Under the pieces are notes generated by a model, which had not been told where the DNA came from, made no database searches, and saw only the letters and a list, made by a program, of their open reading frames with translations. Both the position numbers and the translations under genes were made by a program. Positions 10,501 through 13,500 of a stretch of 64,000 nt of DNA are shown here, piece by piece. How positions within the stretch are numbered: position 1 is the stretch's first letter; each line of letters starts with the position of its first letter. The DNA comes from Lama guanicoe (Eukaryota), in assembly GCA_013239625.1 (NCBI GenBank), contig MU057202.1:3919101-3983100 (forward strand). The letters run 5' to 3'.

Positions 10501-13500
10501 GAGGGACTGCCCAGCCGTCACAGGACTGCCCCCAACCACTCCTGTCCCCAGGTGCCACTGCCCCACAGGGCAAGCTCCTGACCAGGTTGGTGGGACACAG
10601 GAAGACCTTCCCCAGATGCGGTCCAGGGACTCTTCAGGGGGTGGGGCACCCAGAGCCCCAGGATGTGGGGTGCAGCCCCTGGTGCAGGAAGGTTATGTGT
10701 TCCTATGGCATGTGCTGCCCTGGTGGCCCCTTTGCCTTGCCTTGAGATGAGCTGCAACTTTCCGTTTTAAAGCTCCGTGGGGACAGGTTTTGCTCCCAGA
10801 AGGGACTTGTGCTGCTGTTTGGGTTTAAATTTAGGCATTTCTGGTTTCAGTCTTGGCATCGCCCTCCTTGTCCTTCACATGGTGTGGGGGGAGCTGCAGC
10901 CCCTCCTCCAGTGTCACCAAGAGCCCCGCAGGCCTCGGCTCCTCTTTAGAAGGCTCCTGAATCTGAGTCCTCGCTGTCCAAGCCGGTTTCAGGGCTTCCG
11001 TTGCATTCTTACGCATGTCACCGTTTGACTTTGACCATGGCTGCTGCAAGGGGTGTGCTGTCCGTCCTCAGGGTGACTCCTGGGCCACTGGCCAGGGTCA
11101 GCTCGTGGTGCCATCAGCAGGAGCTTGGCCCCTGCGTCCAGACGGGCTCTCATCCCAGCGGCTCCCGTGGGGTCAGTGAGGTCGCTGCTACCCCAGAGAC
11201 GCAGCAGCGTCGGCCGCGTGGTCCTGGGCTTGCGTTGCTGACTCAGGAGCCCTGCGGTGCTGACGGCCCCGGCCCAGCAGTTCTGGTGGTGGGATTTCCC
11301 AGCGGTCTCATGGGTGGGGGGATCCAGTGGATGGGCAGTCCAGTGGCTTAGGGGGCAGCAGCATTTCCTGGGCACCTCAGGACAGTGAGGTGGGAGGAAG
11401 AGGGGCTTCCAGGCGGAGGAAATGTCCCTGATGTCTAAAATGTTTAAATGCTGCTTTTTTTTACTCTCAGAGTCAGGTTTTGTTCACCTGTTACACCCCG
11501 GAAATCCTGTGTTTATTTAGCCAAGCCTGTGAGTGTGTTGCATGTGCACCTTCCCCTGCATTCCCCTTGGCCTCTCAGACTGGCCCGCGTGACTTCATAC
11601 CTGGTTGATACTACAGACACGTGTTTTGCCGGGCATGGCGTCCTCAGGGTAAAATTTCAGAGGTGGACTTACTTCAGGAAACTAAATGTTTCCCACACGC
11701 TCGGCCGAGATGCTTTCAGGAAGCACCTCCTGGTTTCCTCCGCCCGAGAACGGGGGCCAGTTCCTGGTACTTCGGAGCCCTGCGTTTCCAGGTCATTCTG
11801 AACCTGGCTCTCACCCCAGTGCCCACCATGCTGTGCACGCGTCTGAAGCCGTCAGCTCACATGTGTGACTGAGTGTCCAGGGCTGGGACGGACCCCTTGC
11901 CGTCCTGCAGGGGCTCTGTCAGGCTCCTCAGTGCCTGGGCAGGGGGCTCGGCGGTTTTGACTCAGAAGCTGGAGGAGGGTTTATTGGAAAACTGAAACTG
12001 TGTTAAGGGTTCAGTGTGCTCTCTCAGGGCATCAGAGCAGTCACCACCCTGGGTTGTGTAGGTGTGACCACGGAGGCTTCTGGAAGGGACCCTGTTACTC
12101 AGTGAGCCTCACCCAGGATGGCCCAGAGTAGCTGTCGGAAAGTGCAGCTGCCAGCCTCGATGGCTCACCACTGGTTCATGAGGAAAACAGATTGAAAGCT
12201 AAGTGTCTCAAAGAGATGGCTTCTAAATAAGTGCTCAGCCGCTCACCTGAGAACATGAATCTGTTCTCCACAGTAAGTGCTCACCTTCTTCAGTGGCCTT
12301 CTAGGGACGTGAGTTTGAAATGTCAGCTGCACGGTCACCTATCATGAGCTAGGACAGTGTCTGCAATGCACCTTCATGTGTTCGAGGCAGTTGCTGGGGT
12401 AGCCTTCTCAGGCTTCATTTTGTGGGAGTTTTGGGGGGTGGTACGTAGGTTTATTTATTTAATTGCAGCAGAGGGACTGGGGATTGAACCCAGCACCTCT
12501 TGCATGCTAAGCACGGGCTCTGCCCCCTGAGCTATGCCCGCACCCAGTGTTTTTAAGCTGGATTGGAAGTGCTCTTGAGTTCCTCCAGCCGGACTGTTAG
12601 AGAGGGGAGCAGACCAGGAGGTGCTTCCTGAAAGCATCTCGGCCAAGCCTGTGGGAAACATTTAGTTTCCTGAAGTAAGTCCACCTCTGAAATTTTACCC
12701 TGAGGACGCCATGCCCGGCAAAACACGTGTCTGTAGTATCAACCAGGTATGAAGTCACGCGGGCCAGTCTGAGAGGCCAAGGGGAACGCAGGGGAAGGTG
12801 CACATGCAACACACTCACAGGACCGTGGGGACCGCACTGGCAGGCTGTGCAGAGAGCAGCGGGCCGAGTCGCGCTGCACTCTGTCCTTGGAGAGGCAACC
12901 ACGCCGGCTCTGCTGGCGTGTGGCACGGACGGTGGGGAGGAAGCTGTGGCTGTGAGCTGGGTCTGTGCTGAGCAGGCCTGGTGAAGGCGGTTAGTGCAGG
13001 TCTGTAAAGCCCACGTGGGGTGTTGGGAAGGTGGGGCCTGCACTGCACACTGGACCCCCGTGGTCTAGGGCCTCCTGCTATGTGGACAAGGTGCCAGTGG
13101 GCGCAGGGCCTGGGCAGCAGGCTCCGGGAACTGGGTTGGTGAGACCTTGTGAAGTCCTGGGCCAGCAGCGGCGTGTCTGCGCAACGCGGCTCCAGCCCGC
13201 GCTCTGACTGTGTGTGCAGGAGGCCCAGGCCTGGCCCCCGGTGGGCCTGCTGCCCATCTGTGCTCTGGGCCCGAGGTCAGTGACCCCTGAGCTCCTCAGT
13301 TAGCGCTAGTACCTGAGGGGTGTGACGGGGGCTTACCTGACGGTTCTGGTCAAGAACGGGCCTGCAGACTCCTCCGCGCACGGCTTCCCACGTCTGTGCC
13401 GAGTGCTGGTGGACTCACTCCACGTCACTCGTGGGTGGGGGAGGGCAGGCGGGGGGGTGACTGTCTTCAGTAACTTGTGTGTGTGCGCCCGGCCCGTGGG

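Follow-up and report, generated by a model that had tools for sequence, protein, structure and literature searches.

Inverted pairs of Alu or other SINE copies form intramolecular duplexes within introns; their arms are about 80% identical, and ADAR edits them promiscuously. Near-perfect (>96%) inverted duplicated sequences (IDS) have been reported at 0.78 million in the pre-mRNAs of 49 organisms, with most IDS bases overlapping repeats (707 of 1,260 Mbp), and heavily edited near-perfect intronic duplexes have been described in people, for example in a KLHDC1 intron (Barak et al., 2020; PMC7006430). Arm-to-arm gene conversion has been described for the far larger palindromes of the X and Y chromosomes (PMC8981503). 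Paired conserved complementary regions control the poison exons of BRD2 and BRD3, for which AON and compensatory-mutant proof is reported (PMC10789245). In human SPG7, the deep intronic variant c.286+853A>G is reported to yield an intron 2 pseudoexon with a premature stop that lowers paraplegin (PMC6952318).

In this study, we analyzed an inverted repeat in an SPG7 intron of the guanaco (Lama guanicoe), together with the DNA and RNA contigs that cover it, to compare it with these systems. Literature searches, with subscription journals and supplements outside their scope, found no published report on this SPG7 intron repeat locus, and neither inverted repeats nor secondary structure are treated in PMC8819188.

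Materials and Methods

The window is the whole stretch of guanaco DNA analyzed, 64,000 nucleotides long. Among 24 listed sequencing runs, 14, carrying four organism labels between them, had a word share of 0.88–0.93. Eight of the 24 were examined: four DNA runs, one per organism label and from three studies, and four RNA runs (X15, X17, X18 and X20) from four studies, whose contigs come from a sister lineage. The runs left out include X21–X23, with a share of 0.00, and X24, a targeted capture. Contigs were placed on stretches with one arm only, so that a full arm is bridged by none of the reads or contigs and the spacer orientation was read indirectly.

Results

Setting and Structure of the Repeat

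The peptide encoded by exon 4 matched paraplegin (9RK6_B) at an E value of 3.3e-24, far better than AFG3L2 (0.0031), and the host gene is therefore SPG7; the peptide also matched FtsH_ext, and AAA and protease motifs are encoded further downstream. Exons 1–4 give an open spliced frame, and the locus is presumably autosomal, judging from synteny. RNA contigs carried the joint of exon 2 to exon 3 in three of the four runs and that of exon 3 to exon 4 in two (X15 and X18), with a contig depth of 150–169 at spliced joints vs 8–9 in the intron. Within intron 3, the repeat starts 1,685 nt past the donor and ends 899 nt before the acceptor (Table 1).

The two arms are reverse complements and identical at 206 of 209 positions (98.6%), well past chance (arm-vs-arm BLAST E value 1e-101), and the three mismatches are A11560:C12787, C11698:C12649 and C11702:A12645. 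Without a gap, the match extends 7 nt inward at 5 of 7 positions, giving 216 nt (11526–11741 and 12606–12821), so that the outer edges are sharp and the inner edges frayed. Because both arms lie in intron 3, the pair is a reverse-oriented match of more than 40 bp in one pre-mRNA (209 nt), and its identity exceeds 96%, as in nearly perfect IDS; its length of 209–216 nt places it outside the "long and nearly perfect" subclass (>300 bp). In the predicted fold of 11500–12850 the arms pair end to end, and the predicted energy of the arm duplex alone is -442 kcal/mol.

Table 1. Features of the SPG7 intron 3 repeat and its surroundings, in window coordinates.
Feature	Coordinates	Strand	Basis
SPG7 exon 3, 90 nt	9751..9840	+	open spliced frame; RNA contig loose ends matching exons 2 and 4
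SPG7 intron 3, 3,880 nt	9841..13720	+	exon 3-exon 4 junction contigs, X15 and X18
Candidate pseudoexon acceptor, T-rich polypyrimidine tract and AG	11455..11470	+	13 of 15 pyrimidines, 10 T; richest in T among 5 candidate acceptors of intron 3
Candidate poison pseudoexon, 58 nt, frameshift, stop at 11518-11520	11471..11528	+	splice rule; no inclusion seen in 4 RNA runs
12-mer across left outer junction; second occurrence at 12642-12653, covering two of the three mismatches	11520..11531	+	possible template-switch trace
Donor-like 9-mer (-3 to +6), identical to true exon-4 donor; left arm bases 1-9	11526..11534	+	sequence; predicted opening cost
Left arm, 209 nt; frayed inner end reaches 11741	11526..11734	+	repeat finder, BLAST, DNA and RNA contigs
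Spacer (loop), 878 nt, single copy except SINE; equal length in sister lineage	11735..12612	+	BLAST, genome matches, RNA contigs
SINE in spacer, ~115 nt, high-copy	12429..12545	-	self-BLAST, contig depth
Right arm, the left arm in reverse complement; frayed inner end reaches 12606	12613..12821	-	repeat finder, BLAST, genome matches; joins right flank and spacer end in sister-lineage contigs
Second strong donor-like 9-mer, inside right arm	12672..12680	+	predicted opening cost in duplex 22.4 kcal/mol
SPG7 exon 4, 242 nt, start of intermembrane-space domain	13721..13962	+	peptide matches

Across the 2.05-Gb genome the arm has two matches and the SINE-free part of the spacer one, where absence of a match is not proof of rarity, as an old diverged family could escape such a search. 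The spacer SINE, which we take to be tRNA-derived, is of another kind: 3,613–4,542 contigs were placed per DNA run, with nearly all depth on 12436–12571, and it resembles other copies in the window at 71–76% by self-BLAST. The repeat is not an inverted SINE pair, given two genome-wide arm matches and an arm depth below twice that of the flank. A non-autonomous DNA transposon of the MITE or foldback type, with 209-bp terminal inverted repeats enclosing a non-coding interior, would have the same layout, but the genome holds only two copies of the arm and one of the interior, no target-site duplication was found and the outer flanks share no sequence, and no weak relatives of the arm were detected at word size 7 in 1.06 Mb around the repeat, a search that old diverged families could again escape; we regard this origin as very improbable. 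On these searches, the feature is unique intron sequence duplicated locally in inverted orientation, and not a transposon.

An earlier note on this DNA, made from the letters alone, had described much of this: a 209-bp inverted duplication, 206/209 identical, around an 878-bp spacer with a SINE in it, located in intron 3 of SPG7, with arms that looked like unique rather than transposon sequence. The reverse-complement match with all three mismatches, the contig depth and self-BLAST of the SINE, the exon 4 peptide with the RNA joint of exons 3 and 4, and the two genome-wide arm matches confirmed these points in turn, and its proposal of a long dsRNA stem agrees with the end-to-end pairing of the predicted fold.

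The Repeat in DNA Runs and in a Sister Lineage

In all four DNA runs a collapsed contig of exactly 209 nt covered 11526–11734, the flank contig ended 30 nt into the arm (11555), the spacer contig began 30 nt inside it (11705), and the spacer-end contig extended 30 nt beyond 12612. Contigs collapsing with 30-nt overlaps are therefore the graph of a two-copy repeat. The depth of the collapsed contig was 1.84, 1.78, 1.35 and 1.49 times that of the flanks, where 1.63 is expected for two copies and two bubbles. Right-arm letters appeared at 3, 3, 1 and 0 of the three mismatch sites; since they are present in some runs and absent in another, both letter sets exist. The flanks differed from the window at 0, 2, 3 and 0 of 956 bases, and two of the four runs therefore represent other individuals.

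In the sister lineage seen in the RNA runs, 55 of 1,766 bases differ from the window in the flank and 29 of 691 in the spacer (3.1–4.2%). In two of the four RNA runs (X15 and X18) an arm contig continued at 11526 as the reverse complement of 12822–12851, so the right outer junction is identical to the base in this lineage. The inner junction, at which the spacer end joins the opposite-strand arm, was found in X15, X17 and X20 (three of four), and in X15 the distance from 12425 to the arm was 180 bases, equal to that in the window. For one sister-lineage run, an unchanged spacer orientation is implied by the strand on which the A>G excess falls where an arm meets the start of the spacer. The recurrent inversion of the spacer that the earlier note had put forward gained no support.

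Near-identical arms and a nearby assembly gap (608 N at 21346–21953) might raise the thought of a mis-assembly, or of a recent duplication private to a single animal. Against it stand the collapse pattern in all four DNA runs of three studies and both right-arm junctions in the diverged lineage; mis-assembly is ruled out by the collapse on exactly 209 nt together with these junctions, and the chance of either explanation is negligible.

The earlier note had further called the duplication recent, which did not hold, as the same junctions occur in a lineage 3.1–4.2% away. The four organism labels lie within 0.3% of one another and the sister at 3–4%, from which we infer that they represent the New and Old World camelids. 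The split of these two has been dated at 15.8 (9.2–23.2) Myr (PMC5577142), and the duplication would be more than ~16 Myr old if the two lineages are the two camelid tribes. For an outgroup locus, an exon-4 protein scan of metagenome contigs gave 595 pattern matches and no relative, and an exact 20-base arm pattern gave no match.

Arm Similarity and Probable Gene Conversion

The arms differ at 3 of 209 positions (1.4%) vs the 6.5–8.8 differences expected from independent divergence (P 0.02–0.11), and vs an orthologous divergence of 3.1–4.2% in flank and spacer. Furthermore, position 11541 is C in both window arms and T in both sister-lineage arms (2 of 2 contigs in each of X15 and X18); it is one shared site among 42 bases readable in both arms, and the change is not A>G on either arm. 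Such a state needs one mutation followed by copying, or a compensatory pair. Judged from these sequences, arm-to-arm gene conversion is suggested to keep the arms alike; selection for pairing predicts the same arm pattern. High arm identity would then be no date for a small inverted duplication.

The three mismatches lie 33–37 nt from an edge and leave 137 nt of perfect match between them, and all of them touch a CpG in one arm, as do 18 of the 209 positions. At 11560 a G stands in the left arm in X15 and in the two arms alike in X18, and this G is either genomic, in which case the window A reflects CpG decay, or a product of efficient A:C editing. The left-arm contig of X20 carries one extra C>G; on that evidence the left arm of the window would have gained a CpG at 11698. 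CpG decay was accordingly not taken as the cause of every mismatch: 11560 fits it, and 11698 would not. The earlier note had read the two A:C mismatches as a context that ADAR prefers. As a feature tuned to ADAR they found no confirmation: with a CpG touched by each of the three mismatches no ADAR selection is needed, and the two sister-lineage arms share a G, genomic or edited, at 11560.

Origin and Similar Repeats Nearby

The 12-mer across the left outer junction (Table 1) recurs inside the right arm, and in a control with random flanks such a match arose in 195 of 300,000 cases. This recurrence in the sequence hints at a template switch, at birth or later, and the repeat probably originated by replication template switch or by staggered-break inversion.

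With a threshold of at least 50 bases and at least 88% identity, a survey of the same contig in 180 stretches, each 10 kb long, gave three further two-copy inverted repeats. Known from the assembly alone, they measure 111, 64 and 56 nt, are 98–100% identical and have spacers of 803, 697 and 1,757 nt, and all three of their mismatches lie within 6 bases of the outer edge. One falls in a dispersed repeat of old age, with ~80–85% similarity among the other copies, and another is unique. Two-copy inverted repeats are thus not rare on this contig, at a density of ~2 per Mb, with the SPG7 repeat the longest of four in 1.86 Mb, and all four of these local repeats have an identity of at least 97.7% and spacers of 0.7–1.8 kb. 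Splice-like edges were seen at two of the neighbor repeats, and no transcript is tied to them.

Probable Editing of the Arms in RNA

Both arms were present in RNA contigs of X15, X18 and X20, runs that also carry spliced SPG7 junctions, where DNA carry-over is possible. Contigs reach up to 157 nt into an arm in RNA and 30 nt in DNA; the RNA versions of the two arms therefore differ in sequence. Editing counts were obtained from class totals, by subtraction of run tallies for the RNA contigs of the sister lineage. X15 served as the baseline: it covers flank and spacer with few arm bases, and its 88 differing places were all accounted for.

In X18 the totals of flank (55) and spacer (29) equaled those of X15, and the right-arm contig showed 21 differences in 157 nt. 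The tally of X18 held 11 T>C above X15 and at most one extra in any other class; T>C in left-arm coordinates corresponds to A>G on the transcribed strand of the right arm. In X20 the left-arm contig, joined to the spacer start, had 14 differences in 119 arm bases, including at least 8 A>G outside the set of X15, with no T>C excess. Compared with the flank rate of 4.6% per A, the 11 of 44 A's in X18 gave P 9e-6 (P 5e-3 with the most cautious count of 7/44) and the 8 of 27 A's in X20 gave P 5e-5. The direct T>C share of X18 vs X15 (18/100 vs 7/88) was marginal at P 0.053; the per-A test was preferred to this whole-run share, as a single contig carries the whole excess. In the flanks of X15 and X18 no A>G or T>C excess was present outside the arms (55 vs 55), and X15 and X17 gave no clear editing count. 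Gaps in RNA contig cover at the arm core, at 11577–11703 in X15 and 11407–11688 in X17, would fit heterogeneous editing and were given no weight in the argument.

The class of change flips with the arm and is in excess nowhere outside the arms, which is the pattern expected of an ADAR-edited fold-back; by tally subtraction, strand-polarized A>G clusters confined to the arms, as in edited IDS, were thus found in two of the four RNA runs. An absence of editing, with sister-lineage arms that diverged in DNA and a duplex that barely forms in vivo, might be read from contig-level data unmatched to DNA, the more so as A/G transitions in the flank already exceed T/C (39 vs 25). However, the excess changes from A>G on the left arm to T>C on the right (left-arm coordinates), and 25–30% of A's are touched vs 4.6%, with none outside the arms, in two studies, which leaves this alternative improbable. 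From these contig sequences, the arm duplex is likely A-to-I edited by ADAR. In the earlier note the duplex had been put forward as an editing substrate or dsRNA source: this gains indirect support from the predicted duplex and the arm-confined A>G excess of these two sister-lineage runs, taken from tallies, and the ADAR-preferred A:C context gains none.

A Candidate Poison Pseudoexon at the Left Edge

A possible effect on splicing of exons 3 and 4 had also been proposed in that note. Normal splicing was seen in the RNA contigs, and a candidate pseudoexon donor was found in addition, which goes beyond that proposal. The outermost nine bases of the left arm equal the true exon-4 donor and could close a 58-nt pseudoexon whose acceptor tract, one T longer in the sister lineage, is the richest in T within intron 3; all three acceptor choices for this donor give a premature stop. 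By the rule used, which was chosen after the site had been seen, no second pair of acceptor and donor of this kind exists on the window's + strand. Because the pseudo-donor is paired in the best local structure even when the right arm is left out, opening energy was used rather than unpaired probability. The predicted opening cost of the pseudo-donor is 12.7 kcal/mol with the right arm vs 3.8–4.5 kcal/mol without it, and that of the true donors is 1.2 (exon 3) and 6.5–8.3 kcal/mol (exon 4). Paired pseudoexon donors of this kind numbered 114 in 3.6 million strand-bases (~1 per 32 kb), which gives a chance of ~1.3% for 418 arm bases. In addition, all four GTRAGT sites of intron 3 lie inside the repeat unit, which makes up a third of the intron. 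As in the poison-exon class, the predicted pairing overlaps a frameshifting cryptic exon. No joint to the pseudoexon 11471–11528 was found in the four RNA runs, where contigs drop rare forms and NMD is active.

The duplex could accordingly have a function in splicing, kept since it masks the donor of the poison pseudoexon, and the donor in the right arm, and so protects paraplegin output; by analogy with the BRD2 and BRD3 poison exons, editing or slower pairing could tune inclusion. The exact coincidence of the donor with arm bases 1–9, the T-rich acceptor with its unfailing stop, the lift of the predicted opening cost from ~4 to 12.7 kcal/mol, the low chance of such a donor in the arms, the gathering of GTRAGT sites in the repeat unit and an outer edge that is sharp and the same in both lineages, beside a frayed inner edge, all speak for such a role. 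However, the splice rule is post hoc, the true exon-4 donor is predicted to be 6.5–8.3 kcal/mol closed and is still used, the pseudo-donor is transcribed 1.3 kb ahead of its pairing partner, and the lack of inclusion in the four RNA runs fits silencing and non-use alike. Moreover, pseudoexons abound, and most stay silent with no hairpin involved. Inclusion of an SPG7 pseudoexon (intron 2) is reported to cause human disease, with ataxia and spastic paraplegia (PMC6952318), which again favors a role. We regard functional silencing as a tentative, minority possibility.

Discussion

Taken together, our analyses favor, as a rather probable reading, an old local duplication in the SPG7 intron whose arms likely pair in pre-mRNA, are likely edited by ADAR and likely homogenized by conversion; the gene itself is probably little affected. 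A chance local inverted duplication of intron sequence, through template switch or staggered break, would have produced the repeat; its arms would pair into a 209-bp duplex in SPG7 pre-mRNA that undergoes A-to-I editing by ADAR, and arm-to-arm gene conversion would keep them near-identical. Splicing would remove the duplex along with the intron, and cytoplasmic dsRNA sensing would be expected only upon intron retention. It would also bury two cryptic donors, one of them closing the poison pseudoexon, and this masking may be incidental or a weak secondary constraint. The repeat is assumed here to be likely near-neutral. Its persistence in both lineages, its rank as the longest of four in 1.86 Mb and its start exactly on a strong pseudoexon donor count against near-neutrality.

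As most likely read, the locus offers a clean ADAR substrate, near-perfect and made of non-repeat sequence, within a gene that is expressed and in a lineage that has been little studied. A more speculative reading, which we hold to be unlikely, would make it a self-repairing splicing silencer more than ~16 Myr old, in which a duplex kept by conversion masks the poison-exon donor, ADAR editing may set the share of SPG7 transcripts that decay, and the nearby repeats belong to an overlooked class of old, conversion-maintained, young-looking dsRNA sources. If silencing were true, a structural accident would now be needed to suppress a poison exon.

The old duplication favored here shares features with each of the described systems. 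First, like intronic IDS such as that of KLHDC1, it is a near-perfect fold-back within one intron, with arms ~1–2 kb apart and heavy A>G on the arms. Unlike "long" IDS (>300), it measures 209–216 nt, and unlike most IDS in the source cited, its arms are two-copy unique sequence, here examined for age and concerted change in a non-primate lineage. Like inverted Alu/SINE pairs, it forms an intramolecular intronic duplex as predicted, but its arms are not SINE copies, the SINE being in the loop, and are 98.6% identical.

Second, it resembles the X and Y palindromes, as far as these are described in the work cited, in being an old inverted repeat with arms closer to each other than to their orthologues and with a lineage-specific replacement common to both arms; those palindromes span many kb on sex chromosomes at >99% identity, whereas the SPG7 repeat spans 0.2 kb, is likely autosomal and has one shared site. 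Third, as reported for BRD2 and BRD3, long-range intronic pairing lies beside a cryptic frameshifting exon and is predicted to suppress its inclusion. Unlike those conserved regions, the SPG7 helix has 209 bp and covers the donor itself, its known range is limited to two close lineages, and the four RNA runs showed no inclusion. Finally, the reported human variant c.286+853A>G concerns the same gene and a pseudoexon with a premature stop, which in the guanaco window is a candidate only; the human pseudoexon lies in intron 2 and arose from a point mutation without a hairpin, whereas the guanaco candidate ends within a 209-nt arm of an inverted repeat in intron 3.

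Inverted Repeats and Duplications Along the Contig

All four inverted repeats detected above the 88% threshold in the window and the 180 screened 10-kb stretches of the same contig were at least 97.7% identical, and none of 88–97% identity was present in this set. The empty intermediate class hints at general homogenisation or quick loss of such repeats. Three direct duplications, in stretches L034, L067, and L102, may be assembly artefacts at gaps.

Repeats, arrays and gap in the window and in 10-kb stretches (L) of the same contig
Feature	Position	Size	Identity	Spacing or context
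Inverted repeat	L099:6602-6712 / 7516-7626 (contig coordinates G000:C9322:3076602-3077626)	111 bp	98%	spacer 803
Inverted repeat, two-copy	L107:7169-7232 / 7930-7993	64 bp	perfect	spacer 697
Inverted repeat	L107:1371-1426 / 3184-3239	56 bp	98%	spacer 1,757
Direct duplication	L034:586-2979 / 3067-5460	2.4 kb	99.96%	copies 87 bases apart
Direct duplication	L102:8473-10000	645 bases		
Direct duplication	L067:2492-3203	362 bases		
Short GC-rich hexamer tandem array	window 6990-7030			upstream of SPG7 exon 1
Short GC-rich hexamer tandem array	window 7420-7450			within SPG7 exon 1
Gap of N	window 21346-21953	608 bases		within SPG7

Sequence Features of SPG7

The GTRAGT donors of SPG7 intron 3 all fell inside the repeat unit (4/4; window 11529, 12273, 12309, and 12675). 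Two of them are located in the loop, and either might be used with the weak acceptor at 11910 to define a possible looped-out or circular exon. On inspection of the sequence, left-arm positions 11701-11710 formed a perfect 10-bp palindrome that coincides with one of the arm mismatches, and its right-arm counterpart is imperfect. Indels of 19 bases at 10504-10522 and of approximately 12–13 bases at 12256-12272 separated the window from the sister lineage. In exon 1, the hexamer array encodes a Pro-Gly run in the SPG7 presequence.

Neighboring Inverted Repeats

An old dispersed repeat, with other copies that are for the most part 78–87% alike, contains the 111-bp inverted repeat, whose two mismatches both fall at the outer edge. 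A polypyrimidine-AG terminates 2 bases upstream of its left arm. Between the arms of the 56-bp repeat, a short terminal coding exon was found; this exon presumably resembles the junctophilin-3 C-terminus, and one arm would be intronic while the other would lie in the 3' UTR. Next comes a gap of N. Genome-wide, the 64-bp repeat is unique, and a donor-like GTAAG opens its left arm; the left arm in SPG7 likewise begins on a donor-like sequence.
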